From a virus, in IMG/VR virus record IMGVR_UViG_3300045988_104520: 64,000 nt of DNA. One strand, written 5' to 3'. How positions within the stretch are numbered: position 1 is the stretch's first letter; each line of letters opens with the position of its first letter. The notes under the pieces are model-generated. The model was given only the letters and a program-made list of their open reading frames with translations. It made no database searches and was not told the DNA's origin. The position numbers were made by a program, and so were the translations under genes. This document shows, one piece after another, positions 3,534 to 63,975 of the stretch.

Positions 3534-3560
3534 TTGTTAAACATAAGGCAGTAGTGGTGC

Positions 3561-7655: not shown

Positions 7656-7685
7656 CATACTCCCATAGCTAAAGCAAACGGGATT
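7651..7685 (+). repeat. 35-nt conserved element TTTGACATACTCCCAT(A/C)GCTAAAGCAAA(C/T)GGGATT, copy 1
   Basis: 33/35 identical to 38763-38797, same orientation. Read directly. Confidence 0.75.
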
Positions 7686-7841
7686 AAAAGAATGTAGCAG
7701 GGAAGAGGCATTTGACATCATTCAAGGGTGGGATAAAGAGTTTGCAGAGGAATATGGGAATTGTGATTTTGATGGATCATACTATGATGAAATAGATGCA
7801 TTTATCGAAGAAAAATTAAGAACTATTTAAAATATAAAGAC

Positions 7842-47230: not shown

Positions 47231-47247
47231 TGTAATTAACTTTTTTG

Positions 47248-47255
47248 CAAAGTTA
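47248..47255 (-). promoter_or_regulatory. Bacteroides-type -7 box TAACTTTG (minus strand) upstream of the 752-aa gene
   Basis: Plus strand CAAAGTTA read directly. Confidence 0.35.
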
Positions 47256-47256
47256 A

Positions 47257-47796
47257 TTATAAAACCGACTTATACAATGACGGATCCCAAATTCCTTCTA
47301 TATAAATCTCCGGAAAACTCAAACTGCCATCACGAAGAGTGGTGACTTCCAAGCTGGGAATGTTGAAAACAGTACTGGTATCACTAAACTCACCATTCAA
47401 CTTGATAGCATTTCCGCTGTTATTAGCCTCATAATAAAAATAACAATAATTTTCATTAATGCTTGGATCATATTCGTACCAATATGTTAGATCTTGTATA
47501 TGATCTTCTATGTTACCAATTTTGTTTTCACCTAATATAAAAATACCATTATTGCTATGATTATAAACCATAGATTCATAACCACCATAATTCCAATTAC
47601 TATTAAACATTATGTAACTAACATCAGAATCATGATCTTTTAATACAGGTCCTATATGTATATGAATTTTATTAAACTGACATACATAAGGTCTTTTCCC
47701 TCCAAGCCTTTTTATATCCTCATTAGATAACTTATTATAACATCCTCCCACGAAATTATCCGCAGCATTAAAAAATCTCCTTCTCATACTCAACAC
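47257..47796 (-). CDS. Hypothetical Asn/Tyr-rich beta-rich protein (179 aa)
   Basis: ORF; 7-nt overlap with the upstream giant gene. Confidence 0.6.
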   Translation of the reverse strand: MLSMRRRFFNAADNFVGGCYNKLSNEDIKRLGGKRPYVCQFNKIHIHIGPVLKDHDSDVSYIMFNSNWNYGGYESMVYNHSNNGIFILGENKIGNIEDHIQDLTYWYEYDPSINENYCYFYYEANNSGNAIKLNGEFSDTSTVFNIPSLEVTTLRDGSLSFPEIYIEGIWDPSLYKSVL

Positions 47797-50700: not shown

Positions 50701-53700
50701 TAGCGATTAAGAACACGAGCCGATTCTTTGTCTATAGACCATCTTGCATGATAAGGCAGTTCTATCACGGTAGCCGTTTCTCCACCTATGTTAAGAGAAT
50801 ACCTTTTAGTGCCATTAGCGTTCGTTTCAGAGCTTATTTGAATAGGAACCAATGATTTTATAGAAGATATAAATTTATCGGCTCTAAGACCTGCAATTTC
50901 ATACCTTTCGTTGCCATCGTTGGATATTCTTCTAACCATCAACGTCTCTGGATTCTGGGCGCTATCTATGTTAGCTCCAGGCGTATTATCGGATTCATCT
51001 AACTCATTTACAAGAGAATCTATATTGGTATCATCCTCCCCAAAATTACTTAACGTAGATTCGGAAATACGACCTTTATCAATAATCCTGTTTTGTTCGA
51101 TATAAGGAAGGAGATCCGTGATGTTTCCAACCTGGCCAAGATCTTCTATGGTAAATACCGAATCGGCAAGCTTATCTTCGTCAACTTTCTCCCCTTTGTC
51201 CCGTCTGTTCATTATATCAACATACAAAGAAATAGCATCATCAAGTTCCTTCCTTTGATCTGGTTCCAAATTGGATTTAGCCATATCAATAATAGCTTTA
51301 TTATCCTCATACACAGATCGAGGCTCAGTAAGTCTCCTAACTTTATCTGATAAATCTTTTATCATCTTAGCCGGACTGTCTCCAAGAAATGATATGTAAT
51401 CATCAATATCCTGCTTGTATTTATCATATATCTCCTTCTCTCTTGGAGATAAAAGATCTTGATTACCTGTATATATCTTGTCTACTATACGTTCTCTAAC
51501 CTCTATAGGTGCAGACAAAAGATCTTCCATAGCCAACTCATAATCAAAATCAGACAATATATCCTCTTTCGGTTTCTGAGTTATACCATCATTTAAATGA
51601 CCAAATACTTTCATTGTAAATGCCTCATCTGAATCTATTTCACCATTGTTCAGGAGTTCATTTATTTTTTCATCTAAACTGATATTGTCTCCTTCCTGGT
51701 TCTGATAAAAACGCTCACTTTCTATAGGCTTGGTATCAGATGACACCATATCATTTAAGAACTTAGAGAATAAAGAAAAATCGTGTCTCATAAATTTCTT
51801 ATCCTGCATGGAGTTCATGAATGACCGTAGAACCTTATATTGGGTAATAGCTTGCTGGTATTTTACCACCATCTTTCTTAAATCCTCTGCTTCTTTCTTC
51901 CCCTTATTGTTCTCGATATAAGTGCTTAAAGAAGCAACAGAATCATAAGCTTTTAATATATCTTCAGCAGTTATTGTTTCGGATTTAAACAACTCAAGAG
52001 CTGATACTCCAGGATCAAAAGAATAAAATACTTCTTTATAACTACTAAGAAGATCTTCTGACAACCTTCTATATTCCTTATTAAGATTATCGTATTTAAT
52101 AGTTTTTTGTTTTATAGCCTCTGCTTCGGTATCATTGCCATCCTCTACTCTTCTTGGAGTTGTAGCCAACCTTTCTATTTCAGCATTCAGATCATTGATC
52201 TCATTACGCAATTCCCTTAACTGATTAGCTGTATCAAAAGCTTGACTTGATAATGAATAAAACGTATTTATATCATCAAACAAATTATTGTCATTTACAT
52301 AATCAGCAATATCATTTGATGCTTCCATTGCCATATCCTCTGCATCCAACCCCTTAAACACAGCATTAGCAACATTAGATCGATAAAGATCAGATGAAGT
52401 CTCAGCAGTAATAGCCTCAGCAAAAGAAGAAGCTTTTTTATAATTGGCTAACTTCTTATCAAAATCTTTTATAATATCTTCCTTGTATTTTTTAACAGTT
52501 TCTTCATCTACTTTCATTTCAGAAGCCAACTCACTTTCGTCAAGGCTTTTAACCATTGACCTGAAATTGTTAGCCGTATCCTCTAACATTCCCATTCTGT
52601 CAGATAATTCAAATTTAGAATAATAATCTGATTCAGGATCATTCATTTGAGCATTAAATTCGGCTAAATTTCGCATAGAGTCTTTTACAGATTGAGAAGT
52701 AAAAGCATTATTACTATTAAATTTCTCAACATCAGTATTAATAGTACGCTCTTTATTTCTCCTTTCATATAAACCAAAAGCACCATTTCTGGCTCCAAAT
52801 AAACCACCAATCAGGGCTCCTATGCCAATCTCTTTCAATCCTTCTTTGGTTGTAAATTGTTCAGCTATGGCCTTAGAAAAAGAATCAACTATAGAAGACG
52901 TAGCATCAAGATACGTCTTATCATATCTTGATCTAATAAAATCTTCCCCCATGCGCTGAGCAACACCTTGCATGCCTTCCTCCCATACACCTTCAGATAT
53001 GGGTCTTTTAGATACATTCCAAACAGTAGCTAAGGATTTCTGGAATAAATTTGCTTTTACCGTCTGTAATCTTCCAGCATCACCCGCTACCTTCTTAGTC
53101 CCTAATCCAAACAAATAGCGATCTACAAAACTCTTTGATCCCCTATATGTGTTTGATACACCCTTTAATCCAGGTATGTATTTAGAAGCAAAACCAGTGT
53201 CTACTCCAAGATATTTTCCCAGAAGAAGATAATTGGATAATCCAACTATACCCATATTAGCTAAAAATATGCTGTTTGCTGTATCGGAAATAGAACTCTT
53301 AAATTCAGCCATCTCAGACTGATTAGGATTCCGACCATACATATTTTTAAAATATTCCTTGTATTTACTTTCAGAGTCTTTCATGAAGGACTGAGCCTCC
53401 ACGGCAGACTCCCAGCCGGCGCCCACGAACGTATTTACTCCTACCTTGGCCATATTGCCTATGGCCCTGCCGTACATCGCTCCTGCCCTATACGCTCCAA
53501 AAGCTGATTTTACAGCACTTGCCGCAATCTTAGACGCCGCCATCTTTCCGGCCACTCTCATCCCTACTTTAGCGCCAACAGCTCCAAGACTTGACACGCC
53601 CATCCCACCTGTAAGGTAGGCAGACAGAATAGCTCCTGTCGTAAACGATAGACCATTTCCAATAACATCATTAAAAATAAAATTTGCAGTTCCAAGACTC

Positions 53701-54509
53701 TGCAAAAATCCCATATCACGCTCTTCTCTTGTATAATAATGAGGAAGAGAGTGGTTTATCCTTTCATCTATATCATTTATGGCCCGTGTAAAATCATTGT
53801 CAAATGCAGAAGATAACGTACCAGTCTTTATAAGATTATACGCAGCCGGGATAATACCTACTACTCCTGATACACCATATAATGCTGTTTTTGTGACAAG
53901 TTTTCCTATACCATTAACAGCCTTATTCCAAGTAGTTTGCCTTCTTCCGTAATAATCTTCATTATCCCTTCCTGGCATATAACTTTTAAACTTTGCAAGA
54001 CCGATGTTCCCATCGGATAAAAAGTCATATGCTTCATCTAACTTAATAGTTCTTCCTTTACCAAATACACCAAAATCAACAGCAGATGACTGTTGATTAC
54101 CAGCTATAACCTCACCATAAGACGTTTGTTTACCAGAATAAGTATTCCTTGATTTATCTTGAATAGATTTTATCATGGAATTTAACTTATTATAAGACTC
54201 CTCTTTCTTCTTTCTTGGATCATCTCCACCATTCAGAGCCGATTTTAGTCCAGAAAAAGATGTGTCTACATCAAAAGAAGTATCTATTCCGCTAATATCA
54301 GACCCTTTTTCTGAATCATCATCAGGATTTATGGCTGATACCGGGGGAGTATATGAACCTACTTTCATCCTCTCCATCTCTCTTTTTGCTCCCTCAATAA
54401 GAGAAGATTCTTCTTCATATCGCGTAGGAACTACGGCATTATACCCTCTTAATCCAGTAGATGGTAAGAAACCTGATTTCTCTACCAATGTCTGTTCCTT
54501 ATTTTCCAT
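47790..54509 (-). CDS. Giant virion-associated protein (2239 aa) with Gly/Ala-rich hydrophobic segments and Pro/Ala-rich linker
   Basis: 6.7-kb uninterrupted ORF; GVSGVVGIIPAAY... and GAVGAKVGMRVAGKMAASKIAASAVKSAFGAYRAGAMYG segments. Confidence 0.85.
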   Translation of the reverse strand: MENKEQTLVEKSGFLPSTGLRGYNAVVPTRYEEESSLIEGAKREMERMKVGSYTPPVSAINPDDDSEKGSDISGIDTSFDVDTSFSGLKSALNGGDDPRKKKEESYNKLNSMIKSIQDKSRNTYSGKQTSYGEVIAGNQQSSAVDFGVFGKGRTIKLDEAYDFLSDGNIGLAKFKSYMPGRDNEDYYGRRQTTWNKAVNGIGKLVTKTALYGVSGVVGIIPAAYNLIKTGTLSSAFDNDFTRAINDIDERINHSLPHYYTREERDMGFLQSLGTANFIFNDVIGNGLSFTTGAILSAYLTGGMGVSSLGAVGAKVGMRVAGKMAASKIAASAVKSAFGAYRAGAMYGRAIGNMAKVGVNTFVGAGWESAVEAQSFMKDSESKYKEYFKNMYGRNPNQSEMAEFKSSISDTANSIFLANMGIVGLSNYLLLGKYLGVDTGFASKYIPGLKGVSNTYRGSKSFVDRYLFGLGTKKVAGDAGRLQTVKANLFQKSLATVWNVSKRPISEGVWEEGMQGVAQRMGEDFIRSRYDKTYLDATSSIVDSFSKAIAEQFTTKEGLKEIGIGALIGGLFGARNGAFGLYERRNKERTINTDVEKFNSNNAFTSQSVKDSMRNLAEFNAQMNDPESDYYSKFELSDRMGMLEDTANNFRSMVKSLDESELASEMKVDEETVKKYKEDIIKDFDKKLANYKKASSFAEAITAETSSDLYRSNVANAVFKGLDAEDMAMEASNDIADYVNDNNLFDDINTFYSLSSQAFDTANQLRELRNEINDLNAEIERLATTPRRVEDGNDTEAEAIKQKTIKYDNLNKEYRRLSEDLLSSYKEVFYSFDPGVSALELFKSETITAEDILKAYDSVASLSTYIENNKGKKEAEDLRKMVVKYQQAITQYKVLRSFMNSMQDKKFMRHDFSLFSKFLNDMVSSDTKPIESERFYQNQEGDNISLDEKINELLNNGEIDSDEAFTMKVFGHLNDGITQKPKEDILSDFDYELAMEDLLSAPIEVRERIVDKIYTGNQDLLSPREKEIYDKYKQDIDDYISFLGDSPAKMIKDLSDKVRRLTEPRSVYEDNKAIIDMAKSNLEPDQRKELDDAISLYVDIMNRRDKGEKVDEDKLADSVFTIEDLGQVGNITDLLPYIEQNRIIDKGRISESTLSNFGEDDTNIDSLVNELDESDNTPGANIDSAQNPETLMVRRISNDGNERYEIAGLRADKFISSIKSLVPIQISSETNANGTKRYSLNIGGETATVIELPYHARWSIDKESARVLNRYTDVSIQDVGNSYSLVYKRLDSDELVPYRTGVGFGENEVDKIDQEALSSLKKGDKVNLEIDVNDTYNQSLFAEYNDAVQSGDKKRIESAENKLVSNMVIKVMSGNRFVSVVKADTGGIDGISKIRRTAFNKWKKDAGRSATISVGTHVVAQTLPGRPVFNMRVNGQGYGQVENLPITEKGAEKVSDVGYVLNGKVVLKNGSKYTGFPFAYSILNDKGNNYKNVRVPVVVIKGKNGLNYLFPVSLRSVESEEGKKWISFIDMLLESGDSELLQMGQDDIQDLNAYLTKLGLDPASYQVSYLNPISGLIKAREAIEKLSTVPDVVKWVEDGSRSVKDIVTSEVESGIDFEGEMFVAPKIRIQFGKSSSRSKSLIEDDLPFSDEGKTVTSKEYVDVYEEEMPEEGAVRGTQPAPLAQPAPAAQAMQSLPGKKRTSRKNFSLMLNEIESHIEKEGLPPYANIFDFIARKIVGGDLRFLRERGNPKSLKEEMGLEPKGTVGDKISTPSSKGGKTLNEYVSWLRSQTDQVVVDYVGPRSDEQIISELKNFLKYINFVPSKALNYSLRVNGMDTLKEYGTKEEVEKMESDINSLVSKVLPTVDNKTVEDVSTAIKSNNLPAIWEPVESLDMTNEEKIEFLNNVADFLSGIPEYDAVVESIESESDNILNDGKEGSAEGGAVRTEEDGDKKGDGEGKGQSRTNVEVKGNVELPGYEEGRVDNYRKNGDKFSDIAEVTLWLLRRAAGITSIPEGEEVYVEGDEVNSIMTDMESRYGIDTINHSHTTKAIRDLNGVSGYKVEYGLTFLTYDPFIRISNPREEYKAAKDEPRISEEPLTHISRVTTPYFLYGGDEAYTSVPAKVEPIPEKIMGRNGIKFGMSVVELTKLGYKKAGGNWIYKFYMNSGVYDLYNISTGEAFRAKPDLGVKISSSAFIRSLSQSGRKIQNMMSNMSQEEIDRNKNLVEGSDNSDSINELNKEC

Positions 54510-54512: not shown

Positions 54513-57500
54513 TTATTCCCTATTTACACTATTCAACAACTTCATCAACTTGCCGTTTTTATTCAAAGACGCAGGTAAATTACCTCCTTCTTTTGCCGCC
54601 ACCATATCCTTAATCTCCTCTGTTATGGCTGCCACAACAAAATCAACTATTTTTTTCTGAGGCGCAACAGCAAGTTCTTTAGACACATTATCCGCAAACC
54701 ATACATTAGGAGTATCAAACGAATCTATTAACTCAGGTTTACCATTCTCCATAAGATAAAGCCTTGTCTCATATCCATAACCGTAACTTGTCTTAGGATC
54801 ATAACCTTCAACCTTTACACCAAGCTTTCCACTGTTATCCAATATATCTTTAGCTGCATTAAGAAGCCAAACCTTTTGTTCTGGCATATCATCTAAATTA
54901 TTACCAGATTCATTTATCATATCTGATAACACTTTCATCATTGAAGATACAGAAGCATAAGCGGGTGATATATCTGAATTTTCAAGCATCTTCGGATACC
55001 ACATATTGGTATCACTTCCAAATGTAGGTCTTATAATACCACTTTCATATCCACCTATATCGACGGAAGGAGTATTAATACCAGGATCTATGCCATTATT
55101 TATCAACTCTGTTTCAGATACCTCAACAATATCTATTTCCTCTCTTTCACCAGTATGATTAGCAACCAAACTGTAAGTCTTCTCTCCATTGTCGGCTATT
55201 CCCGATTCTGTCAAAGAAAATGATTCAATAGTTGCCGATGATGATTTAGATTTACCAACAGGATGCTCTGCCATTTTTTTAGTAAATAGATCCCTGAGAA
55301 CACCCATCTCTCTATAACCAGCCTCCTTGGAGGTTAATTTGGTTGAATACGTTACTGTGTTAGGTGAATACAGTTCGAGATATTCTTTACGTATCTCATT
55401 TATACCATCATCTTGAACCTTAGTTATTTGATTGGCTATATTAATATCGCTTACTACATCACCTCCAACGCTCTCCATTCCGCTAATAGAATACAGTGTA
55501 TTAAAAAACACCTTTTCTTCACCATCCGAGAAACTATTTTTTACATCATCGTATTTTTTTAAGAAATACCTGCCACTTTTGCTATCCCTCTCAAATACTT
55601 TAGATAAATCAATGCCATCATTTTTCACCCTCTTTCTTATAGTAGCTATATCAGCAGGCGAGAATCCTTTTTCATAATATCTTACTCCAGATTCTACATC
55701 GCCGACTGTACCTCTATTTTTTCTTAAAATATCATTAAGGGATAACGCTGTAGCATAGGCTATATATTCTTCGGGTTTACCTCCTTCCTTCTGCGCGATC
55801 GCATTTGCTATTTCAGATACAATATTATCATAAATCTTATTCTCCTTCTTAATTCTATCATTCTCTATATCCATCTTGTCTACAGCGCTATTAAGCTGCA
55901 TATAAGCATCTGTGGCAGCTTTTCTCTCTGCCACAGGTAGCTTGTCAAACATATCATTAGAGAGACCTCCATTGTCCTTTATATACTTAAGAAGTTTTTC
56001 TTCATCCATAAGATACTTGTATCCTGATGTTTCATCCGTCATATTTCTTGATATGGCAGCTTGAATATTTTTCATGTTTTCAGCACCAAGGGCTGTAGAT
56101 AGTCTACTTCCGGATGTTACAAGATCTGTATATGCCTTATTAAACTTCTTATGAGTTTCTTCTGATATGCTAATATTTTTAGTTTCGATAGGATTAGCTG
56201 AAATAGTTCCACCAGAGTTTGTGCCAACGCCCACCTGCATGGCTCGGCTTCCAGCTCTGCCGCCTGCCGCTCCTGCACCAGAGGACATAAGTTTTGCTAT
56301 TCTGGCTTCATTAAGCCTATTCTGCATCTTCAGACGTTCTTCGTCTAATCCAAATCTGGCTTCATCCTTATTCTTACCATATTCAAACTCTGCAATATCC
56401 CTATTTCTTTCATATTCAAATTCTATCTTCCATTTTTCGAAATTCAAATTAGCTAATCTTTCCCTCTGATTATATTCTTTGGTTTTCCAGTAAAGCTCGT
56501 CGGCTTTGATTATGAAAGACGAATTATCATAAGCATATGAAGCAGCAGCATTATTAATAAAATTATTTTCAATAACCCTCATCGCTCCAAGATACGGATC
56601 GTAAGCCCTTTCATCCATTCTGCTAAATTCAGATTTCATGGAAGCTATTTCAGATTTGGCTCTCTTTATTTCATTTTCAACCATTTCTTTCTTTGCAGGA
56701 TCAGAACCCAAACCGGAAAGATCGGCAGTAAGAGCATCAACATACCTCTGCTTATCACTTATCTGCTTATTCATAAAACCAAGAACAGAATCATACGAAT
56801 ATAAAGAGGGATTAGAGTCTACCATGTAAATAGCCTCCACCTGCATCTGCTGCCTTGCTTTATCTGATAACCCTGACAATGCAAAAGAAGCTATCTGTTC
56901 AGGAGTAAGCATATCCTTAGTTACTTCTTGTACTGCCCCGGTAGGATGACCATCCTTGTCAAGAATAGGAATCTGAACTTTAGCTCCTTTATGAAGCTTG
57001 CTTATAAAATCTATCCTATCTTTTAATTCCTTATTATAATCAGTATAAGGAGTATATTGAAGAGGAGCAAGACGGGAACCAGCCTTTCCATCATTCACCC
57101 ATTCATTATACGGCTTTAAAGCCGCATAAGCATTCGCAGCAGAATAAAGTTCTGGATTATTTATTTGTAAATCAGATAGCATTTTATGCATTCTCCTGCC
57201 TTCTTTTGTGCCGGCAATCGCGTTAATGACCGTATCATCCAACACCGAACTGATCTCTCCTTGTATGGCTCTCGTAACACCATCAGAAGAAAGATCCACG
57301 CCTTTAAATTTTTGATTGATGTTAGCAATCACACCTGACATCTTATCTTCCATATAAGCGCGGGCTTCAGGCTTATCTATCTCTTGACCAATAAGATAAT
57401 CTACCTGGGTATAAATCTTTTCACGAGCAGCATCAACCTTCTGCTGTTTGTACATCATGACGTCCTTAACAAGATCTATGTTGTAAGGACTAACATACGG

Positions 57501-57536
57501 GGCATATTGCCTTAAAATACTATACTGTGAAGCCAC
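54513..57536 (-). CDS. Large virion-associated protein (1007 aa; GTG start in the track)
   Basis: 3-kb ORF; coiled-coil-rich; abuts the neighbouring genes. Confidence 0.8.
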   Translation of the reverse strand: MASQYSILRQYAPYVSPYNIDLVKDVMMYKQQKVDAAREKIYTQVDYLIGQEIDKPEARAYMEDKMSGVIANINQKFKGVDLSSDGVTRAIQGEISSVLDDTVINAIAGTKEGRRMHKMLSDLQINNPELYSAANAYAALKPYNEWVNDGKAGSRLAPLQYTPYTDYNKELKDRIDFISKLHKGAKVQIPILDKDGHPTGAVQEVTKDMLTPEQIASFALSGLSDKARQQMQVEAIYMVDSNPSLYSYDSVLGFMNKQISDKQRYVDALTADLSGLGSDPAKKEMVENEIKRAKSEIASMKSEFSRMDERAYDPYLGAMRVIENNFINNAAASYAYDNSSFIIKADELYWKTKEYNQRERLANLNFEKWKIEFEYERNRDIAEFEYGKNKDEARFGLDEERLKMQNRLNEARIAKLMSSGAGAAGGRAGSRAMQVGVGTNSGGTISANPIETKNISISEETHKKFNKAYTDLVTSGSRLSTALGAENMKNIQAAISRNMTDETSGYKYLMDEEKLLKYIKDNGGLSNDMFDKLPVAERKAATDAYMQLNSAVDKMDIENDRIKKENKIYDNIVSEIANAIAQKEGGKPEEYIAYATALSLNDILRKNRGTVGDVESGVRYYEKGFSPADIATIRKRVKNDGIDLSKVFERDSKSGRYFLKKYDDVKNSFSDGEEKVFFNTLYSISGMESVGGDVVSDINIANQITKVQDDGINEIRKEYLELYSPNTVTYSTKLTSKEAGYREMGVLRDLFTKKMAEHPVGKSKSSSATIESFSLTESGIADNGEKTYSLVANHTGEREEIDIVEVSETELINNGIDPGINTPSVDIGGYESGIIRPTFGSDTNMWYPKMLENSDISPAYASVSSMMKVLSDMINESGNNLDDMPEQKVWLLNAAKDILDNSGKLGVKVEGYDPKTSYGYGYETRLYLMENGKPELIDSFDTPNVWFADNVSKELAVAPQKKIVDFVVAAITEEIKDMVAAKEGGNLPASLNKNGKLMKLLNSVNRE

Positions 57537-60352
57537 TATTTGGTCCTCCTTCTTCTTTTATTTTCGTCATCTTCTTCATTTAAACTTCTCAAGTAAGGTG
57601 TAGAATAATCACCCATATTCATCACATCCTGATTACCTTGAACGTAAATAATTTGACCACTTGGAAGCATTCTCATATTCGGAGCTATGGAAGCTATGGT
57701 ATTCAACGATGTACGAACATTAAACTTATTCTGTATCTCACTGTTTATGCTGTCATAATAACGAGCAAGATTTTCATCCCTTATAGCCATAGCCTTCAAT
57801 AACCCAGATTCATAACGTTGCCTTTCCGCTATGTTCTTATCGTCTGTCTGAACATAAGCCATTTCATTGAATCTATCAGCTTCGTTTATTTGCCTTGCGT
57901 TATTGAAATTTACTTCGTTAATGTACTTGGCTATATTGCTTCCGGCTATGGCGTTCATATTAGCCAGAATAGCGGAGCGCTGGGAGTCGGGCACGTCACC
58001 TACTGCGTCCAACTGAGCCGATGTCGCGCGGTTGAGCTCGTTGATATACTGATCAGCAGATTGAAGAACCGGGTCTATTCTCGGAGCCTGATGCCTTTCC
58101 AGACCTTCTATCTCCAAGCCTGTATCGAGCGTTCTCAGCATCTCCGGGAAAATAGGACCGAACGCCGCCGGTCTGCCCTGTCCTTTAGGTCCGTTGTCTT
58201 CAACCACCTCCTCTGTATCGGTGTCGGTTGCAGTCGTAGGCGTACTTGCTTTCGGTTTTACCTCTATCCTTCCAGTAGATCCAATCTTAGGCGGTGTAAG
58301 GCCTGGTGCTATGGGACCGGCCTCAATAGGCTTCATTTCTGGTTTAACAGACTCAAGAACGAAGTCTATTTCCGGCATTAACCCACTATCTCTTAAAGCA
58401 ACAAACTTATTATAATCGGAGCCCAGAATCTTCTTAGCGGCATCAGATTTATCACCAAATAAGTCAACATAATTCTTTATCCCTTTTTCGTTTAACAATC
58501 TTTTTTGCTCTGCCGAAACAACGTCCAACCCATAATAAGAACGAGTAGCTGTTGTCTGACCAAACTTATCATCTACGGCAAATGAATTATAAGCCTGATT
58601 CCCTCCGTAGCTTCCGGCGTCCTGGCCCCAGAATCCGTATTCATCTCTGAATTTCTTGGCTGCATCAGCATTCGTAATAGCGCCTACATCAGCTAACGCC
58701 CACAATGCATTTAATTGCCTGTTGTATCCTTTCTGGAAACCTTCTGTATCAAAATCACCATCCGTATTGTACTTGTTAGCCCATCGGTTTATGTCGAGCA
58801 AATTAGATACCGCCTTATCATTTACCCTGCCGTATCCTAAATTGCTTCTATGTTGGAGATTCTGGTTGGCATTGACACTGGAATCAGGATTAAGAATCTG
58901 CTCACGACCACTAACATCAGATACAGTCATATTAAGAGTTCGTCCAAATAACTGATTGATAAGCTTATTGTAGCCGATAGCATTCTTTCTAAGTTCCTCC
59001 AGCTCCTTCTGAGTAGGTCCACCTTCAGCCATTTTCCTGGTTTGCTTAACATACTCGTCATATATCCAGTTCTTGGCATCTGATTCTGCAATATTAAAAG
59101 CCTTGGCTTGTTTCTTTACCTGATTCAGATCAACAACCCCGCCATACCTGAAGAAAGCATCCATCTTCTCGTTACGCTTAGATTCTTCCTGTTTGCCATA
59201 AACGATTTCAGCGAAAGAACGAAATTGTACTTCAAGCTCGTCTATCTCTTTCTGGTTTTCATTGACGTACTTGGAAAGAATAGAAGCATTAAGATTAGAT
59301 GTATTTTTATCTTTTACATCTTCATTTTTCTCTAATCTCTTATATACACGCTCCTGATCTTCATACTTATCAGACAAACCGATCTTCTTCTTATATCGAT
59401 CAAGGAGTGTAGCATACGTATCTTTAGACGTTGCCTTAATACCGTAGTTTTCTCTAACGTAAGAGGCGAACTCATCATCTATCTTACGATAATCGGAAAC
59501 AATATAAGCTTCCGGTAAATCAACTGGCGTGCCTCCATTCTCATGCCTGTTTCCTTTAGCTTCCATAGGCCCCACTGAATCAGGCGTCAGCACATACTCG
59601 CCTTTCTCTATCTCTACGTTAGCATTATCCTCCATAGATTTAGGAAGAGGATAAATATATTCGCCGGTCATATCAGACGTATCCATCTTCTGACCGTTAC
59701 CTAAATTCACGCCACCACCTTCACGTTCCCACTTGATGAATTGCTGACGACGCTCCTTGGCAAGTTTTTCCCTTGCAGCCTGCTCGTCTCTGCTGGCAGC
59801 ATATGCAGCAGATGAAGCTCCCATGATATTACGGGTAAGACCTAATCCTAAACTAACACCAGATAAGGCAGCTTGAGCCACGTTAGCGCCCACCTTATTA
59901 CCAGCTCGTATCCTGCCAAGGCTGGATCCGAACATCTGAGCTCTGCTGGTTAGGTCGGGTGAGTAATATGGGATAGTCATAGGATCGAGAGGATTTCCAT
60001 CCTGTGATCGCTTTTCTTTTGATTGATTTTCTTCTTTATCAACACTAACAATAGTTCCTTTGGGCATAGACTTAGGATCGAACGTATTGTTATTACTTAC
60101 ATTCATAGTCGGAATAGAAGGTTCTTGCATTTTTATAGTAGAATAGTCAGGACCTATAATATTGTCAAATCCTGCCTCCATCATGTCTATTTCCGAATTT
60201 ATCTCACTCATACCAGGAACATTGGACATATCCATATCAATATAAGGATTAGATGTCGTATCAGCCTGTTGTGTAACATCCTGAACACTACCACCAGGAG
60301 CGAATACCGGACGATTTTTTATGATTCGTAATCTCATATCATCTTTTTTCAC
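57536..60352 (-). CDS. Large virion-associated protein (938 aa). The track start is GTG; an in-frame ATG 15 nt downstream (about 60337) may be the true start.
   Basis: 2.8-kb ORF; a TATCTTTG box overlaps the GTG. Confidence 0.8.
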   Translation of the reverse strand: MKKDDMRLRIIKNRPVFAPGGSVQDVTQQADTTSNPYIDMDMSNVPGMSEINSEIDMMEAGFDNIIGPDYSTIKMQEPSIPTMNVSNNNTFDPKSMPKGTIVSVDKEENQSKEKRSQDGNPLDPMTIPYYSPDLTSRAQMFGSSLGRIRAGNKVGANVAQAALSGVSLGLGLTRNIMGASSAAYAASRDEQAAREKLAKERRQQFIKWEREGGGVNLGNGQKMDTSDMTGEYIYPLPKSMEDNANVEIEKGEYVLTPDSVGPMEAKGNRHENGGTPVDLPEAYIVSDYRKIDDEFASYVRENYGIKATSKDTYATLLDRYKKKIGLSDKYEDQERVYKRLEKNEDVKDKNTSNLNASILSKYVNENQKEIDELEVQFRSFAEIVYGKQEESKRNEKMDAFFRYGGVVDLNQVKKQAKAFNIAESDAKNWIYDEYVKQTRKMAEGGPTQKELEELRKNAIGYNKLINQLFGRTLNMTVSDVSGREQILNPDSSVNANQNLQHRSNLGYGRVNDKAVSNLLDINRWANKYNTDGDFDTEGFQKGYNRQLNALWALADVGAITNADAAKKFRDEYGFWGQDAGSYGGNQAYNSFAVDDKFGQTTATRSYYGLDVVSAEQKRLLNEKGIKNYVDLFGDKSDAAKKILGSDYNKFVALRDSGLMPEIDFVLESVKPEMKPIEAGPIAPGLTPPKIGSTGRIEVKPKASTPTTATDTDTEEVVEDNGPKGQGRPAAFGPIFPEMLRTLDTGLEIEGLERHQAPRIDPVLQSADQYINELNRATSAQLDAVGDVPDSQRSAILANMNAIAGSNIAKYINEVNFNNARQINEADRFNEMAYVQTDDKNIAERQRYESGLLKAMAIRDENLARYYDSINSEIQNKFNVRTSLNTIASIAPNMRMLPSGQIIYVQGNQDVMNMGDYSTPYLRSLNEEDDENKRRRRTK

Positions 60353-60405: not shown

Positions 60406-61425
60406 TCAATCATGTACGGAAGACAAACCACCCGAATCAGGGTCGTACTTAAGACCGCATGCCATGCGATAGTTCTTAAGCGCTCTCTTGTACAAAAACA
60501 GCACCGTCTTGGAAACTATTTTCTTCATAGATTTGGTTAAAACCTCTTCTGTTGAAACAGACATCAGACAGCTATTCAAGAACGACCTGACATTAGAACC
60601 GAACAAGGTCTTCACCATTTTTCTAAACGTTCTAAAAATATATGATGCAGAAAGAGACTTTAACCCATTGCGAGCCAGTCTCTTATTAATATAATTAATG
60701 GCTTTTTCAGATAGACAAAGCCTGCTCTTTCCTTGACTGTCCACCTCTGACGAGAACCACGAATACAAGGTGGTAGGATGTTTCTTGAGATGATTGATGA
60801 AGGAAGTCATTATCCCTTCTTTCAAAGTCCTTTTGTGGGCTACACATGCAGCAATCTTCTCTTCTCTTTTTAAAGAGCTGTCAAGGCACCTAAACACCGT
60901 CCTATCGTCTCCAATAAAATACTGAGGACGTTCTTCTTTAAACTTAGCCCGATAAGCGGCATATCCTTCCTTACGGAGCATATCTATCTGAGACCGGATA
61001 TAGAACCTTACACACTTTTCTTCGGCTTCTTGCACGCTTTTAAGATAAGGAACTGACTTTCTCCCATATCGAAGATAGTCATAAACCATAGCCTCTATGA
61101 AGTCATTGTATGGGAAGAATCTTCCAAAACCAAAGTTCCAAACTATGAAACATCGCACTCTATCTTTCCAGTAATCAGATATAAGAAAGTTACTACAATA
61201 TCTCAACTTCCTGTCTTTCTGATAGAAATGATGAGTATGTTTGTCGTAAAATAGATTAAAATATCTCAAATTGCCTAAACACTGACCGGATGGACGGCGT
61301 ACTACATTATACCCTAAGTTGCTGAAGCTATTGTATATAACTTCTATCGGAGAGACCGGCTCTTTCTTAAAGAGCTTGTCGTGTAACTTGTGAGGATCTG
61401 TTATTTCTTTTAACTTTGTGTCCAT
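60406..61425 (-). CDS. Hypothetical protein (339 aa), basic, Tyr/Phe-rich
   Basis: Intact ORF with a canonical -33 TTTG / -7 TATCTTTG promoter upstream. Confidence 0.65.
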   Translation of the reverse strand: MDTKLKEITDPHKLHDKLFKKEPVSPIEVIYNSFSNLGYNVVRRPSGQCLGNLRYFNLFYDKHTHHFYQKDRKLRYCSNFLISDYWKDRVRCFIVWNFGFGRFFPYNDFIEAMVYDYLRYGRKSVPYLKSVQEAEEKCVRFYIRSQIDMLRKEGYAAYRAKFKEERPQYFIGDDRTVFRCLDSSLKREEKIAACVAHKRTLKEGIMTSFINHLKKHPTTLYSWFSSEVDSQGKSRLCLSEKAINYINKRLARNGLKSLSASYIFRTFRKMVKTLFGSNVRSFLNSCLMSVSTEEVLTKSMKKIVSKTVLFLYKRALKNYRMACGLKYDPDSGGLSSVHD

Positions 61426-61443
61426 ATTGATATTCTTTTAGTG

Positions 61444-61474
61444 CAAAGATATGGTTTTTTATCATACGCTCAAA
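61444..61474 (-). promoter_or_regulatory. Canonical Bacteroides-type promoter (minus strand): -33 TTTG, 19-nt spacer, -7 TATCTTTG, ~23 nt to the ATG at 61425
   Basis: Plus strand CAAAGATA (61444-61451) and CAAA (61471-61474) read directly. Confidence 0.5.
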
Positions 61475-61489
61475 GAAGAAAATGCACGG

Positions 61490-61531
61490 CCTTGTATCCG
61501 GTTTGAGAGAAATAGGATACAAGGTTTTTTT
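61490..61531. terminator. Strong intrinsic terminator hairpin (10-bp perfect stem CCTTGTATCC/GGATACAAGG, 15-nt loop, T7 on plus; T-rich flank also on minus)
   Basis: Read directly; sits immediately upstream (minus sense) of the promoter above. Confidence 0.75.
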
Positions 61532-61748
61532 GTTTTATGACGGTTTGGATAAGAGACGGGAAAACGGTTCTGAACGTAACTGACTGACTGTCAGGGGTGG
61601 GACAACAAATCTTGAATTAAAACTACGCCTATTAATAGTCTCCGTTTTCCTTAATATTAAGACCATTTTCAATGATCTTACCCATTATATCATTTATATT
61701 ATTTTATATACTTTAATATTTATTCATATAATTGTTTACAGTGAATGA

Positions 61749-61924
61749 ACTTAACGACCGAAGGGAGTTAAGTGAGTGAACAGATTAACAAATTACTTTT
61801 TCCGTCTATTGTATTGTTTGCCTAATTGTGTTAAAGGATTGAGTATCGTGACCGAAGGGAACGATGCGAAAGAACATATAACATTTAAAAAACGACTGAA
61901 CCTATCGACTGAAAGGAGATAGGT
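61749..61924 (+). promoter_or_regulatory. Three hairpins (61749-61773, 61843-61867, 61900-61924) with 7-bp covarying stems and a conserved 11-nt loop GAC(C/T)GAA(G/A)GGA
   Basis: Stems ACTTAAC/GTTAAGT, GTATCGT/ACGATGC and ACCTATC/GATAGGT. The loop change C to T is compensated by G to A, preserving an inner 2-bp stem around a GAA triloop with flanking tandem G/A. Confidence 0.6.
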
Positions 61925-62184
61925 GATGGAGTGACGTTAATAGTTATATTAGGTAGCCAGTGGAGAATTAGGCAGGCTGGTAGGCGAGACGGGCTCCCAT
62001 GCCCGTCAGGACAGTGGAGGTACGTAGGTCTGTTCTGTTAAACCAAGGCGATGATAGTTCCATCCTTCACGAAATCGCACAAAAAAGCCGGATTATCTTG
62101 ATATCGTTCTTCAACCTTCGGTATCCGCATAACGAGTCTCAAATCCGGCTTCGCTTTATTAATATGATAAATAAAATAATTGTT

Positions 62185-63975
62185 CTAATTGTCAGTGACG
62201 CCTTTAATGCGAAGCTGAATATTGGGAAGCACGGCATTAATCAAAGCCATTTTCTTATCCTCTTCGCTTTCTTTTTGATTCTGTCTATACATCATATTAT
62301 AATCACTGTCATCACCATCCTTTTTCCCGTCTAACGTCAGTAAATGATTTATGATGTCCTTACCATACGTTTCAGTCCATGTACGGAATCTCTCTTCCTC
62401 GGACTGTCCCTCCTGGGACGGGGCTTCCGGGTTAGGGAGGGCGGCTGCCACTTCTACCTCTGGAAGTGTTACCGATGCTGCTATTTCACCATCATCTCCG
62501 AATCCCATTTGGCCATACGAAGATACGGAATTGGAATTTTCTTCAATTTCCAAACCAAGATTTTTAGCAACTTCCATAGCATAGTTATAACGGTCATCAT
62601 TTCTTATAACACTTTTATGAGGACGTCCTGCTCCTTGGTTCCAAGCTACTACAGCATCTTTAAGGTTATCGGCGTTCATAAAATCCTGCCGGCTATAGTT
62701 GTAATACCCTGGTCCTTCTTTTCCTTTTCTTGTGTATAAGAAATTAGAATATCCGGTTTTCCCTTCGTATTCGTCAGCTAAGAACTCAAGTTGGTCTTTG
62801 AATGTGGGTGTAGAATGACCTTTCTTTTTGGCATGCTTGAATAACTTATCCATGCGTTCATTATGCCATTGCTGTATGCCGTATGATGTTCTATTGTCTC
62901 CATATATGTCATCTTTAAGACCGGATTCAGCCATGAGATTACCTATGATGGCAAGCGCCTGTATCTTGGACATACCCCTCTTATTAGTAAAGTAATCATA
63001 TGCTTCACGCTGTTTTCCAACCACTCCACCTTCTTTCATCTTACTTACATCATCTACTACACCTAATGTTGATATAATAGGATTTGCAATATCAAGTACA
63101 TCATCTACCCTATTCCCATATCTTCCCATAAAAGACATATTCCTTATCACATTCGTTCCTCCTATTGCCTCGGCGGCTCCACCAAGTATGCCGGCGTAGT
63201 TAAAAGTATTATCTCCTTCTGGATCTAAGGCAATCTGGCTTCCGTCAACACCCACATTAGACAATCCAGCTATGGTTTGTATTTTGCTACTTTCTGCTAT
63301 TGTCTTAAGAATCGGCATCAACCTTAATCCCATTTTGTTATATAATCTGAGCATTCCTGGTGTAGAAGAAGCAACGTCCGCAAGTGTAAGCAAAGATTCG
63401 GCCATTAACTTATAAGGGTAAGCATCCTCCCTGCTCTTGTTCTCCCTCTCTTCTTTAGCATCATCAATTCCCTCTTTTACCTTATCTATATCTATAGAAT
63501 CTAAAAGATTATTTATAATAGCTCCTATTTCTTCCCCGTTTCCATCTTTGGATATTATCAAATTTCCTATTTCACTATTTGAAAACCCGGCTATTCTTCT
63601 AAATTCGTCCTCATCAATTTCACCTTTTTCAAGATCTGAATGAGCTTGTTCAAGTAATCTCCTCCTCTTTTCTTGCCACTCCCCATTGTCATCTTGTCTT
63701 TTTATAACCTCATCTCTCTTGTCTGGATTGCTCCACCAATACTTAGCTTCTCCACCTTCTTCGTATTTCCTTACAAACCTTTTAGGTAAAGCCTTGTCAT
63801 TATTTCGAAGCACACTACCTTTCTTAGGATCGTATTTGATACGTTCCCTTATTCTAAGAGGGACATCCCTTTCCGGTATGATGTCTTCCGCTATCTTCTT
63901 TCGACTAAAATCATAATCATCCTTCACATCTAACATACCGGCATCAGGATCCCATCTTACACTGAAATTCTTCAA
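62185..63975 (-). CDS. Virion/tail-associated peptidoglycan hydrolase (phage tail lysozyme-like domain)
   Basis: ALAIIGNLMAESGLKDD...YGIQQWHNERMDKL matches the tail-lysozyme pattern (GN..ES ... G.QW). Confidence 0.75.
   Translation of the reverse strand: MKNFSVRWDPDAGMLDVKDDYDFSRKKIAEDIIPERDVPLRIRERIKYDPKKGSVLRNNDKALPKRFVRKYEEGGEAKYWWSNPDKRDEVIKRQDDNGEWQEKRRRLLEQAHSDLEKGEIDEDEFRRIAGFSNSEIGNLIISKDGNGEEIGAIINNLLDSIDIDKVKEGIDDAKEERENKSREDAYPYKLMAESLLTLADVASSTPGMLRLYNKMGLRLMPILKTIAESSKIQTIAGLSNVGVDGSQIALDPEGDNTFNYAGILGGAAEAIGGTNVIRNMSFMGRYGNRVDDVLDIANPIISTLGVVDDVSKMKEGGVVGKQREAYDYFTNKRGMSKIQALAIIGNLMAESGLKDDIYGDNRTSYGIQQWHNERMDKLFKHAKKKGHSTPTFKDQLEFLADEYEGKTGYSNFLYTRKGKEGPGYYNYSRQDFMNADNLKDAVVAWNQGAGRPHKSVIRNDDRYNYAMEVAKNLGLEIEENSNSVSSYGQMGFGDDGEIAASVTLPEVEVAAALPNPEAPSQEGQSEEERFRTWTETYGKDIINHLLTLDGKKDGDDSDYNMMYRQNQKESEEDKKMALINAVLPNIQLRIKGVTDN

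Follow-up and report, generated by a model that had tools for sequence, protein, structure and literature searches.

A covarying family of capped hairpins in a mobile cassette of csAssE-type phages and its possible role as a structured non-coding RNA

Why should three hairpins with unrelated stems and a common cap be kept side by side in a non-coding gap of the genome of a human-gut phage? The question was raised by a first-pass annotation of IMG/VR virus record IMGVR_UViG_3300045988_104520, of which a stretch of 64,000 nt (hereafter the window) was analysed. Comparison with related phages identifies the hairpins as a family with covarying pairs and a preferred strand that is under selection, occupies a single locus and is linked to one open reading frame (ORF). 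From there, we infer that the locus gives rise to an RNA, and propose its transcription, ends and long-range fold along with a protein partner and a biological role.

Three hairpins at a single locus

The hairpins, 25 nt each, were found with exactly the sequences and positions first described. On the plus strand, H1 (61749–61773) consists of the 7-bp stem ACTTAAC/GTTAAGT and the cap GACCGAAGGGA; H2 (61843–61867) carries the same cap, GACCGAAGGGA, on the stem GTATCGT/ACGATGC, one pair of which is U·G; and H3 (61900–61924) combines the stem ACCTATC/GATAGGT with the cap GACTGAAAGGA. The stems are unrelated in sequence, and what the hairpins share is the cap pattern GA-NN-GNA-NN-GA. In H1, the cap resolves into a tandem G·A, two C-G pairs and a GAA triloop, and at the base of this hairpin (61746–61776) the flanking TGA...GAG gives an extra tandem G·A and a U·G pair. 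All three hairpins sit within a non-coding block of ~0.7 kb. The gap had been called non-coding at the outset, and rightly so: all three stop types are present in every frame, and no ORF appears under any single stop-codon reassignment.

The cap sequence GACYGAARGGA matched three times in the 64-kb window, always at the hairpin locus, compared with an expectation of 0.16, and none of 100 shuffles reached three matches. It is hence restricted to one locus of the window rather than common by chance, a concern that the first-pass annotation had voiced. A covariance-model search, proposed in the same place, led to the same picture. With a 39-nt model, the window and the whole genome (150 kb) of csAssE-Sib, the closest relative, returned the same three sites only, at E values of 1e-8 to 1e-10 (62.8 bits and E 6e-10 for H1, 57.2 bits for H2, 56.4 bits for H3). 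A putative fourth hairpin inside a neighbouring ORF for a 339-aa protein (60789–60811) received no support from the model and was dropped. Rfam 15 gave zero matches at or above the gathering threshold over the whole window and, for the gap, nothing relevant at relaxed thresholds; tRNA and tmRNA genes were absent from the gap. Nor do H1–H3 qualify as intrinsic terminators, with no U tract after the hairpins and a negative terminator scan.

Beyond the window, the hairpins were present in more than 100 IMG/VR contigs, and among the matches listed in an IMG/VR scan for the same cap, the hairpin-forming ones came only from the csAssE group. Mimicry of a host element was also considered and rejected: across 185,579 species genomes, the exact 20-base pattern had two matches, both non-hairpin chance matches. 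Searches of the literature for csAssE and for non-coding RNA (ncRNA) hairpins of crAss found nothing relevant.

Covariation, selection and strand preference

The 11-nt loop proved not to be invariant, as had been claimed, since variant caps occur both in close relatives (GACCAAAGGGA at 12 loci, AACC... at three, GACCGAAGAGA at two, GAC--GAAGGA at six and TACC... at three) and in other lineages (GACCGGAGGGA, GACCGTAGGGA, GAGCGAAGCGA, GAACGTAGTGA and GACGTGAGGA). The compensatory change reported for cap pair 4/8 is real and has a U·G intermediate, as this inner pair of H3 is C-G at three loci of the population, U·G at 58 and U-A at 14. Cap pair 3/9 covaries as well (C-G, G-C, A-U). Of the two geometries originally put forward, the plus-strand one holds, in which a GNA triloop and a helix of 2 bp are stacked on the tandem G/A, whereas a C(UUCG)G loop on the minus strand is contradicted by GAGCGAAGCGA and by the U·G intermediates.

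Compensatory changes preserve pairing across four lineages. The H1 population variants ACTTGAC, GTTGAGT, ACTTAAT and GACTGAAGGGA all form G·U on the plus strand, four stem pairs of H2 are altered on both sides elsewhere (e.g. GGATATC/GATATGC or ATATCGT/GCGATAT), and the stem of H3 reads CCGAAUC/G-UGAGG in other lineages, with an internal tandem G·A. In an alignment of 43 sequences, 93.8% of the cells are paired, compared with 29–40% when the partners are slid, and nine pairs show changes on both sides versus 3.1 in shuffles; in a 12-unit alignment, 98% of the cells are paired and 7/9 pairs covary. Because independent lineages are few (four), the covariation rests on few events. Unrelated stems thus stay paired via covariation, in line with the idea of a structural instead of a sequence constraint, and the first reading of the locus as a functional hairpin family under such a constraint is supported.

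Across ~77 close genomes, nucleotide diversity (pi) is 0.026 in H1–H3 and 0.021 in an AT-rich block upstream of them, compared with 0.081 and 0.152 at third positions of codons in the two genes on either side. With diversity 3–6 times below that of synonymous sites, H1–H3 are under purifying selection.

Folding of the RNA on both strands, another of the checks initially suggested, yielded more stable structures on the plus strand for all three hairpins (plus vs. minus: −9.8 vs. −6.8 kcal/mol for H1, −11.8 vs. −5.0 for H2 and −10.9 vs. −7.5 for H3). A 296-nt fold had a z-score of −4.3 on the plus and −1.25 on the minus strand, and RNAalifold returned −28.1 and −11.2, respectively. Polymorphisms in the stem and cap pairs of H1–H3 mostly retain Watson-Crick or plus-strand G·U pairing. 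In the aligned hairpin pairs, 66 cells are G·U on the plus strand versus 10 that are A·C, the latter confined to H1 and H3 and tentatively attributed to a shifted register of bulged stems in diverged lineages. Besides, the GA/GA of the caps becomes UC/UC on the minus strand, and the local purine skew runs counter to that of the genome, in which sense strands are rich in G and A. Wobbles as intermediates, the conserved G·A, the energies and the purine skew all point to the plus strand of the window, i.e. the strand antisense to the flanking late genes. Folding with DNA parameters favoured the plus strand too, yet only slightly. As C(GNA)G caps and tandem G·A are hallmarks of unusually stable single-stranded DNA hairpins as well, a role at the DNA level would give a similar strand bias.

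A mobile cassette and its further elements

The non-coding block always precedes, and moves with, a minus-strand ORF (60406–61425) for a basic orphan protein of 339 aa (pI 9.7). Homologs of this protein at 92%, 81%, 60% and 43% identity all have an upstream gap of 0.56–0.76 kb that bears the hairpins; for a remote homolog, the gap measures 1.1 kb and lacks these hairpins. Non-coding block and ORF form a cassette of ~1.8–1.9 kb that is found at two distinct intergenic sites among phages that otherwise share ~92% identity, and the second site has no lysozyme gene. For its own expression, the 339-aa gene has a candidate −7 promoter box of the Bacteroidetes type (TAnnTTTG), TATCTTTG, at 61444–61451 on the minus strand. 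Boxes of this type recur on the gene strand at the equivalent position in 5/6 lineage representatives scanned; the remaining one is L082, whose extracted gap ends before the box position.

The protein itself matched nothing in Pfam, PHROG or PDB. HMMER searches against 1.84 billion representatives retrieved orphan relatives only, with more than 5,000 member sequences in the cluster of the hairpin-linked protein, and the 43% homolog had no relatives in an IMG/VR search. With the AF2 model, which is of poor quality (pLDDT 63), neither a fold match nor a recognisable RNA-binding fold was found. Inspection by eye for an HUH or HNH motif was likewise negative, the CHAH histidine not being invariant.

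The plus strand of the gap contains both promoter-like and terminator-like elements. A candidate promoter, TTTATA-18-TATAAT (61703–61745, plus strand; 10/12 matches), marks the 3' end of the AT-rich block (61631–61740, 85% AT); its TATAAT at 61727–61732 stands ~10 nt before the conserved start ..ACAGTGAATGA. TATAAT-like hexamers, albeit imperfect, are seen at the equivalent position in other lineages, and no canonical Bacteroidetes TAnnTTTG box was found on the plus strand. We infer a plus-strand start site near 61740. Downstream of H3, a purine-rich 3' block on the plus strand (61953–62014; GTAGCCA..GA.AA...GGCAGG...GGTAGGCGAG ... CAGGACAG) is conserved in three lineages, and its local G>C skew is opposite to that of the genome. 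Its UAGGC is tentatively paired with GCCUR at ~61818–61824, which would enclose H2 and H3; this long-range helix is predicted by both RNAfold and RNAalifold and is only partly consistent between lineages. A GACGGGC hairpin listed earlier is indeed present (GACGGGC/GCCCGTC, 61988–62007), but it is weak and poorly kept: 85.7% of its cells are paired, and other lineages have no counterpart.

Further along, a long hairpin, AGCCGGATT...AATCCGGCT (62086–62150), has U-rich tracts after it on both strands and a conserved interior including CC(UUCG)G at 62115–62121, and its stem covaries in L082 and L091 (GCCGAGCCAT/ATGGCTCGGC). It probably serves as the terminator of lysozyme and might also form the 3' end of a plus-strand RNA. 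Being absent at the second insertion site, where no clear plus-strand terminator was found, it belongs to the lysozyme site and not to the mobile cassette. On the other side of the AT-rich block, the CTGAC hairpin of the first description turned out to be a conserved element that is better read as a CTGA-N3-TCAG palindrome (61584–61617; CTGA-CTG-TCAG, then GGGTGGGACAA..ATCTTGAAT): across lineages, the half-sites are conserved around a variable 3-nt spacer, and the element looks like a double-stranded operator. Between the hairpin region and the 339-aa gene stands yet another hairpin, CCTTGTATCC/GGATACAAGG with a 15-nt loop (61490–61536), which is terminator-like in both directions, followed by T7-G-T4 on the plus strand and flanked by an A-run on the opposite side. 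Over four lineages, its stem covaries and its loop GTTTGnGAAAATA is conserved, and its pi of 0.011 is the lowest in the gap. The ACGGTT repeats noted at first are present as well, but the stretch that holds them is variable (pi 0.082), and csAssE-Sib has not retained them.

What the hairpins may do

Among the functional classes initially suggested, sites recognised by an RNA- or DNA-binding protein of the phage are the most plausible. Our leading reading, held tentatively and at a little under an even chance, is that the hairpins are modules of a previously undescribed plus-strand ncRNA of ~280–420 nt that would offer G·A platforms to a protein. Such an RNA would be read antisense to the late/structural genes, starting near 61740 past the TATAAT-like element. 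Each module would comprise a 7-bp helix of free sequence between tandem sheared G·A pairs, closed by a very stable mini-cap that consists of 2 bp and a GNA triloop (one lineage has a GNRA tetraloop on 1 bp instead), and the purine-rich 3' segment would probably fold back via many G·U pairs so as to enclose H2 and H3. The ncRNA gene and the 339-aa ORF would together constitute the portable cassette, with the ORF on its own host-type promoter behind the hairpin and T-run. The presence of several similar capped hairpins in one putative ncRNA suggests multivalent protein binding; the RNA might serve as a scaffold or decoy whose repeated G·A platforms bind several copies of one protein. As to which protein this would be, our guess is first the co-mobile 339-aa protein and second the phage Ro60 homolog.

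Several known RNAs offer partial parallels. Like the CsrB/RsmZ sponges, the putative RNA would display several similar hairpins with a purine-rich apical motif and free-sequence stems in one ncRNA. In contrast to them, GGA is not conserved here, as illustrated by the GCGA and GUGA caps (GAGCGAAGCGA and GAACGTAGTGA), what is conserved being the G·A/G·A platform and the paired mini-cap, and no CsrA-like gene was seen; these caps without invariant GGA led us to reject a Csr-type sponge. K-turns and K-loops share the stem-GA...GA-stem arrangement with tandem G·A near the terminal loop (the sheared geometry being putative here), yet the internal loop is a symmetric 2x2 without the 3-nt bulge and the cap is paired and covarying, which speaks against this class; besides, no L7Ae-like protein, the K-loop partner family, is known or seen in this phage. 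A type III antitoxin RNA (ToxI-like) shares the terminator-like hairpin between repeats and ORF, but it was discarded as well, because the units have structure and not sequence in common, lie on the opposite strand and accompany a 339-aa protein without a toxin-family match. Finally, the crAss-like phage phi14:2 produces abundant long ncRNAs, whose function is not known, from long intergenic regions (bioRxiv 10.1101/2020.03.07.982082). Here, too, a long intergenic region of a Bacteroidota podophage is the likely source of an ncRNA; unlike the early phi14:2 RNAs, it has a different genome position, no sequence or motif similarity to them (similar hairpins in the phi14:2 lncRNA regions were not found) and transcription that is predicted.

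Could the hairpins instead act as DNA? The plus strand, as template, might extrude hyperstable hairpins from supercoiled DNA for a single-strand-dependent phage RNA polymerase (RNAP), giving minus-sense RNAs toward the terminator at 61490–61536 and the 339-aa gene. N4 has three hairpin promoters, of which only the template-strand hairpin is stable, with a GC-rich heptamer loop, a sheared G:A and variable inverted repeats around it (PMC4496689), and the crAss-like virion RNAP gp66 transcribes single- but not double-stranded DNA from early promoters without a linear motif (bioRxiv 10.1101/2020.03.07.982082). The number of hairpins, their one-strand stability, the variable pairing arms and the CC-GNA-GG cap, the same type of element as the N4 heptamer with its GC-rich core and 3-nt G-N-A loop, fit this model, and the plus-strand asymmetry would be equally expected of a DNA hairpin. 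On the other hand, each genome has a single cluster, which sits amid the late operon, and no further sites close to early or replication genes, whereas the N4 sites lie upstream of early genes at the first-entering genome end and each drive ORFs; a genome-wide promoter motif was rejected after both a descriptor scan and the covariance model led to the hairpin locus only. The three sites fall within 175 nt with no downstream ORF before a terminator in either direction, and a search of the giant virion proteins of the window and csAssE-Sib, which a divergent enzyme might escape, detected neither an RNAP-named PHROG nor a DFDxD or DxDGD motif, and hence no RNAP of the N4 or crAss type. In addition, the triloop-closing pair of H3 is T·G in most genomes, which would weaken a DNA mini-hairpin, a tandem G·A (GA/GA internal loop) intervenes here between cap and 7-bp stem, G·T/G·U is frequent, and the phi14:2 lncRNA regions lack comparable hairpins. 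The N4-like promoters proposed at first thus lack support on several counts, and we consider a promoter function of this kind unlikely. Its bolder form seems to us quite unlikely, namely that the plus-strand hairpins are the long-sought entry or promoter sites of a single-strand-dependent virion RNAP in gut podophages, an N4-like solution with an unrelated enzyme that would drive an early ncRNA or the cassette gene from within the late region. Very unlikely, in our view, is a DNA replication or priming element, in which the cassette would be a portable ori-plus-Rep module with the 339-aa protein as initiator. The architecture would suit it, combining the 85%-AT block at 61631–61740, the palindrome, the hairpins and a purine stretch possibly favouring an R-loop in a non-coding block that is tied to one gene and mobile as a unit, and single-stranded phage origins are known to contain C(GAA)G mini-hairpins. 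Yet the stems contain G·T, the 339-aa protein resembles no initiator, the replication module of the phage is located elsewhere, and the turning points of the cumulative GC skew are at 17.4 and 110.8 kb and not at the hairpins, which dismisses a main origin there and lends no support to the packaging or replication element of the first-pass annotation.

The remaining alternatives concern RNA. According to one, which we rate as quite unlikely, the transcript would serve the phage TROVE/Ro60 protein (Rsr) as a multivalent, Y-RNA-like partner, sponge or substrate, each cap showing GNC(C)GAAG like the GGUCCGA and GNCGAAN0-1G contacts of Y RNAs. Y RNAs are found within 4 kb of rsr, and the Ro60-contact motifs are GGUCCGA in vertebrates and GNCGAAN0-1G in bacteria (PMC4201824); the cap GACCGAAGG resembles the vertebrate motif (PMC4201824). 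In csAssE-Sib and the close relatives of the window, rsr is situated ~3.1–3.2 kb from the hairpins, and a natural deletion variant, GACGAAGGA, matches GNCGAAG exactly. GACCGAAG has one inserted C relative to the bacterial motif and is one base off the vertebrate one, and the other caps do not fit. Human Y1 contains a stretch, GUCCGAAGG, that also resembles GACCGAAGG. As with Y RNAs and YrlA, we would thus be dealing with a phage-encoded and putatively protein-tethering ncRNA less than 4 kb from a TROVE/Ro60 gene. Unlike them, the hairpin RNA would be on the strand opposite to rsr, lacks a terminal Ro-binding stem as well as, by ARAGORN or Rfam, a tRNA-like domain with T and D arms, presents its motif three times as a hairpin cap and is linked to another gene; a covariance-model match to Rfam Y_RNA or YrlA was missing from 61300–62300 even at E ≤ 10, and a better but weak YrlA candidate adjoins rsr itself. 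Moreover, rsr is missing from the surrounding 6 kb in L082, L089 and the second-site copies, and cap positions 3/9 covary (GAGCGAAGCGA, GAACGTAGTGA) without keeping their sequence, which argues for structure over sequence-specific reading. Least probable of all, and in fact highly improbable, is a minus-strand mRNA element, be it a stabiliser in the lysozyme 3'UTR, a site of processing or, for the 339-aa gene, a leader/antitermination signal. Both neighbouring genes are encoded on the minus strand, Watson-Crick pairs could form on either strand, and the minus-strand caps CUUCGG, CUACGG and CUCCGG look like UNCG loops, but this register fails for GAGCGAAGCGA and for H3 of the window itself, the U·G intermediates and G·U stem pairs would turn into C·A and the tandem GA into UC/UC, and the minus-strand fold is weak (z −1.25). 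Neither gene fits the part, either: the lysozyme terminator comes before the hairpins, and a separate promoter past the terminator-like hairpin belongs to the 339-aa gene. The structured lysozyme 3'UTR once suggested is therefore at odds with an element that favours the antisense strand, lies beyond the lysozyme terminator and travels with the 339-aa gene to a lysozyme-free site.

csAssE-type phages are common in human gut metagenomes, and with a conserved, selected structured element of clear modular build and one orphan gene in the same cassette they provide a tractable case in which to discover a new RNA–protein or single-stranded DNA–protein pair, in a group that is difficult to study. With the 339-aa protein as partner, an orphan family would gain its first functional handle, and with Ro60, Y-RNA biology would be extended. 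Should the hairpins act as DNA, they would bear on how single-strand-dependent phage RNAPs find their start sites. Either way, the natural module of G·A, 7 bp, G·A and mini-cap is compact and very stable, and might be useful for RNA engineering.

The hairpin family and its conservation

The non-coding gap at 61426-62184 (759 nt) lies between two minus-strand genes, a 339-aa ORF (60406-61425) and the 3' part of a tail-lysozyme gene (62185-63975), and contains three capped hairpins exactly where the first-pass annotation had placed them: H1 (61749-61773), H2 (61843-61867) and H3 (61900-61924). Reassignment of any one stop codon leaves no open frame in the gap, and neither Rfam (gathering and relaxed thresholds) nor ARAGORN returned anything relevant there. 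The sole GenBank phage with similar DNA, csAssE-Sib (OR575929, 151 kb, human gut), is 93.5% identical to the window over the gap; for 80 IMG/VR contigs the figure is 92-98%. Homologs of the 339-aa protein define further lineages at 81% (L082/L083, with L090 and L091 alike; same lysozyme context), 60% (L084-L088; different neighbours) and 43% protein identity (L089; lysozyme context).

Across these relatives and lineages, the 11-nt loop initially described as invariant resolves into several caps, namely GACCGAAGGGA, GACTGAARGGA, GACCGGAGGGA, GACCGTAGGGA, GAGCGAAGCGA, GAACGTAGTGA and, in L089, GACGTGAGGA. One plus-strand scheme fits them all: tandem G.A/A.G followed by a mini-cap, in which pairs 3-9 and 4-8 close a G-N-A triloop or, alternatively in L089, a single pair closes a GNRA tetraloop. 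Pair 3-9 covaries (C-G, G-C, A-U), and so does pair 4-8 (C-G, U.G, U-A), bearing out the compensatory change proposed earlier for loop positions 4 and 8. The stem under the cap comprises 7 bp; some stems pair throughout by Watson-Crick or G.U, and the others share the recurrent form CCGAA(U)C/GUGAGG with a further tandem G.A inside. At the stem base, ..YGA and GAR.. can supply an extra tandem G.A plus a pair that covaries, being U-A, C-G or U.G in four of the five unit types, and the linkers share the motifs GUGAAYGA and GAnnGAAC. Copy number is flexible, since natural tandem duplications of ~63-64 nt each add a fourth unit by doubling H3 in one relative (L070, ~3190-3480) and H1 in another (L073, ~3070-3630), and L089 has two units.

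Among 43 distinct sequences, 93.8% of hairpin cells are paired, compared with 29-40% after sliding the partners; both sides change in nine pairs versus 3.1 ± 1.4 in shuffles (1/500 reaches nine), the covariation score is 0.111 versus 0.067 (0/500), and with 12 units aligned as a single family 98% of cells pair and seven of nine pairs covary, all of these counts reflecting few independent lineages and hence few events. Nucleotide diversity (pi) over ~77 close genomes amounts to 0.026 in H1-H3, 0.021 in the AT-rich block and 0.011 in the left hairpin (61490-61536), the least variable part of the gap, and to 0.081 and 0.152 at third codon positions of the 339-aa and lysozyme genes, respectively. 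This places the non-coding core under purifying selection. The family of hairpins is genuine and conserved; it is absent from Rfam 15, and the literature searched yielded no account of it.

Chance recurrence across the genome, raised as a possible refutation in the first-pass annotation, was not observed in the window: the cap pattern GACYGAARGGA has three matches in 64 kb, all in the gap, against 0.16 expected. A strict descriptor and a calibrated covariance model of the unit (R1, which scores bulged units more weakly) located the motif at this locus only, both in the window and over the full 150 kb of csAssE-Sib. An exact 20-base pattern, run against 185,579 prokaryotic species with one genome apiece, had two chance matches, neither of which forms a hairpin, and no host copy; with a looser pattern run over IMG/VR, hairpin-forming hits were confined to this phage group among the matches listed. 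With this single-locus distribution, the hairpins do not make up a genome-wide signal such as a promoter class. Besides, a 7-bp hairpin at 60789-60811 (plus strand, antisense within the 339-aa ORF; GATGATT-GATGAAGGA-AGTCATT) has the cap GA-U-GAA-G-GA and is conserved in csAssE-Sib, was missed by the covariance model and may be due to chance. On an unrelated 140-kb IMG/VR contig, a purine-rich non-coding stretch (L157, reverse strand, ~7590-7860) is packed with GCGAAGC / C(GAA)G mini-hairpins whose stems contain G.U, and may represent another phage RNA of GNA-capped hairpins.

A portable block coupled to the 339-aa ORF

In each of the 81%, 60% and 43% lineages, a non-coding block of 0.56-0.76 kb precedes the gene with a common layout: a hairpin and T-run, the conserved palindrome CTGA-N3-TCAG followed by GGGTGGGACAA, a stretch rich in AT/pyrimidine, two or three capped hairpins, and the purine-rich GTAGCCA..GGCAGG..GGTAGGCGAG. 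Capped hairpins were not recognisable in the 1.1-kb gap upstream of a remote homolog (P0030, L096-L098). One metagenomic contig with an ORF homolog (L095, 1-94) stops inside the upstream gap, in Illumina adapter (AGATCGGAAGAGCACACGTCTGA), which may be either an artefact of assembly or the physical end of a DNA molecule; the majority of the other contigs traverse the gap.

The L084-L088 DNA is ~92% identical to csAssE-Sib around 41.5 kb, where an endolysin-like gene, a transmembrane protein, a DUF6808 gene and a 292-aa structural gene follow one another, and carries a 1.8-1.9-kb insertion made up of the non-coding block and the 60%-identical ORF paralog. It is located between the DUF6808 stop codon and the next gene's promoter (L084 5267-7100), an intergenic space of 83 nt in csAssE-Sib (41637-41719, L092). 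Because block and paralog are found together at this second site, the hairpin block belongs with the ORF and not with the lysozyme gene, which leaves the earlier idea of a structured 3'UTR of the lysozyme operon unsupported. A Bacteroidetes-type -7 box (TAnnTTTG) specific to the ORF follows directly on the hairpin/T-run in five of six lineage representatives scanned. The encoded protein is highly conserved and basic (pI 9.7), and sequence and structure searches detected no family or fold. At both insertion sites (n = 2) the cassette sits directly 3' of a cell-wall hydrolase or lysis-like gene, so that a plus-strand RNA would converge on these genes and an antisense effect on them is possible. 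A few kb from the second site lies a tail-fibre gene targeted by a diversity-generating retroelement (TR/VR plus reverse transcriptase; csAssE-Sib 45751-47816, L092; L085 11572-12783), and the late region also holds two TnpB genes.

The gap holds further conserved elements. At 61584-61617, the palindrome, followed by GGGTGGGACAA..ATCTTGAAT, keeps its half-sites with a spacer that varies across lineages, a pattern resembling that of an operator bound by a protein dimer. The terminator-like hairpin at 61490-61536 has a stem that covaries between lineages and a conserved 14-15-nt loop (GTTTGnGAAAATA), which together with its low pi is unusual for a plain terminator. Likewise, the long hairpin at the lysozyme 3' end (62086-62150) has a covarying outer stem and a conserved interior (CTTGAT..CGT.CTTCA.CCTTCGG.ATCCG..TAACGAGTCT, including a CUUCGG tetraloop on the plus strand), a structure beyond a terminator's needs.

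Strand and competing readings

Every line of evidence points to the plus strand, which runs antisense to the late genes. Where the stems and cap pairs of H1-H3 are polymorphic, most variants retain a plus-strand Watson-Crick or G.U pair (e.g. ACTTGAC, GTTGAGT, ACTTAAT, cap U4.G8, ACGATAC), a rare variant, GACCGAAGAGA, breaking cap pair 3-9 at two loci. Six hairpin helices (the H5 helix left out) contain 66 G.U versus 10 A.C cells on the plus strand, the latter tentatively attributed to a shifted register of bulged stems in diverged lineages. The conserved GA/GA would read UC/UC on the other strand, and the minus-strand C(UUCG)G register suggested previously fails for GAGCGAAGCGA and for the window's own H3. 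Predicted RNA energies of H1, H2 and H3 are -9.8, -11.8 and -10.9 kcal/mol on plus versus -6.8, -5.0 and -7.5 on minus; the 296-nt region folds with z = -4.3 versus -1.25, and RNAalifold gives -28.1 versus -11.2. Besides, the genome's sense strands are G- and A-rich with a skew that tracks gene direction, and this skew is reversed over the ~300 nt bearing the hairpins. An element of the minus-strand mRNA is thus highly improbable, being contradicted by the strand evidence and also by cassette mobility, while double-stranded protein-binding palindromes would be expected to keep sequence rather than pairing.

The likeness of single-stranded DNA hairpins here to N4 promoters, an analogy by which the first-pass annotation proposed hairpin-type promoters for a virion polymerase, is real: in both, three sites carry a GC-rich heptamer whose triloop contains a sheared G:A, the inverted repeats are free in sequence, and one strand is the stable one (PMC4496689). 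In addition, a crAss-like virion RNAP uses single-stranded templates only and has no known promoter motif (bioRxiv 10.1101/2020.03.07.982082). However, the hairpins cluster at one locus in the middle of the late operon, downstream genes are lacking, and the closing pair of H3 is T.G. Neither a DFDxD/DxDGD motif nor an RNAP-named PHROG was detected in the giant virion proteins of the window (31367-37813, 47790-54509, 54513-60352) or the giant CDSs of csAssE-Sib, a phage whose GenBank classification stops at Caudoviricetes; this phage thus shows no evident crAss-type virion RNAP, and we regard such promoters as unlikely. A hairpin RNA acting as Ro60 ligand would fit a TROVE/Ro60 protein encoded ~3.1-3.2 kb off in csAssE-Sib and the window's close relatives, as well as the resemblance of the cap to the Ro60-contacted GGUCCGA / GNCGAAN0-1G (PMC4201824), which the natural variant GACGAAGGA matches exactly. 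Yet the hairpin RNA is on the opposite strand and does not match any Y-RNA model, positions 3/9 covary instead of keeping their sequence, some lineages lack the Ro60 gene (rsr) nearby, and a weak YrlA candidate adjoins rsr itself, making this link quite unlikely. That Rfam match (28.5 bits, E 0.01, below the gathering score of 69) lies just past the window's right end (L001 11740-11844, locus minus strand; csAssE-Sib ~72.6-72.7 kb), next to tRNA-Tyr and tRNA-Lys and upstream of the TROVE/Ro60 gene, and is possibly a phage Y RNA; the 3' end of the same Ro60 gene also occurs in the close relatives L005, L013 and L075. Finally, the architecture would suit an origin or priming element with the ORF as initiator, but the hairpin locus shows no GC-skew turn and the ORF no initiator similarity, and we consider this very doubtful.

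A putative plus-strand non-coding RNA

We favour a non-coding RNA read from the plus strand, and infer its transcription, ends, partner and role. A TTTATA-18-TATAAT element ends at 61732, conserved sequence starts ~10 nt on, and other lineages have TATAAT-like hexamers at the corresponding place. Where the block adjoins the lysozyme gene, transcription could stop at the 62086-62150 hairpin, which is flanked by U-rich sequence on both strands, and yield an RNA of ~420 nt; the part common to all lineages stops near 62014, which would give ~280 nt. Tentatively, an invariant UAGGC in GGUAGGCGAG could pair with GCCUA, GCC(C)UA or GCCUG upstream of H2, enclosing H2 and H3 in a modelled multi-branch fold with many G.U pairs. 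As one apical design is repeated on stems of free sequence, as in multivalent protein-binding RNAs, we propose that the RNA may be a scaffold or decoy for a protein reading G.A platforms, with the co-mobile 339-aa protein, by genomic linkage alone, as first candidate partner. Abundant long non-coding RNAs of unknown function in the crAss-like phage phi14:2 (bioRxiv 10.1101/2020.03.07.982082) provide a precedent, and no similar motif was found in the phi14:2 ncRNA regions.

In summary, the element is best regarded as a phage non-coding RNA with several hairpins and a probable protein-binding role. Its two unusual features are the module of G.A, 7 bp, G.A and mini-cap, and its linkage with an orphan gene in a portable cassette. 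It is abundant in human gut viromes, and the proposals on its function lend themselves to direct testing.
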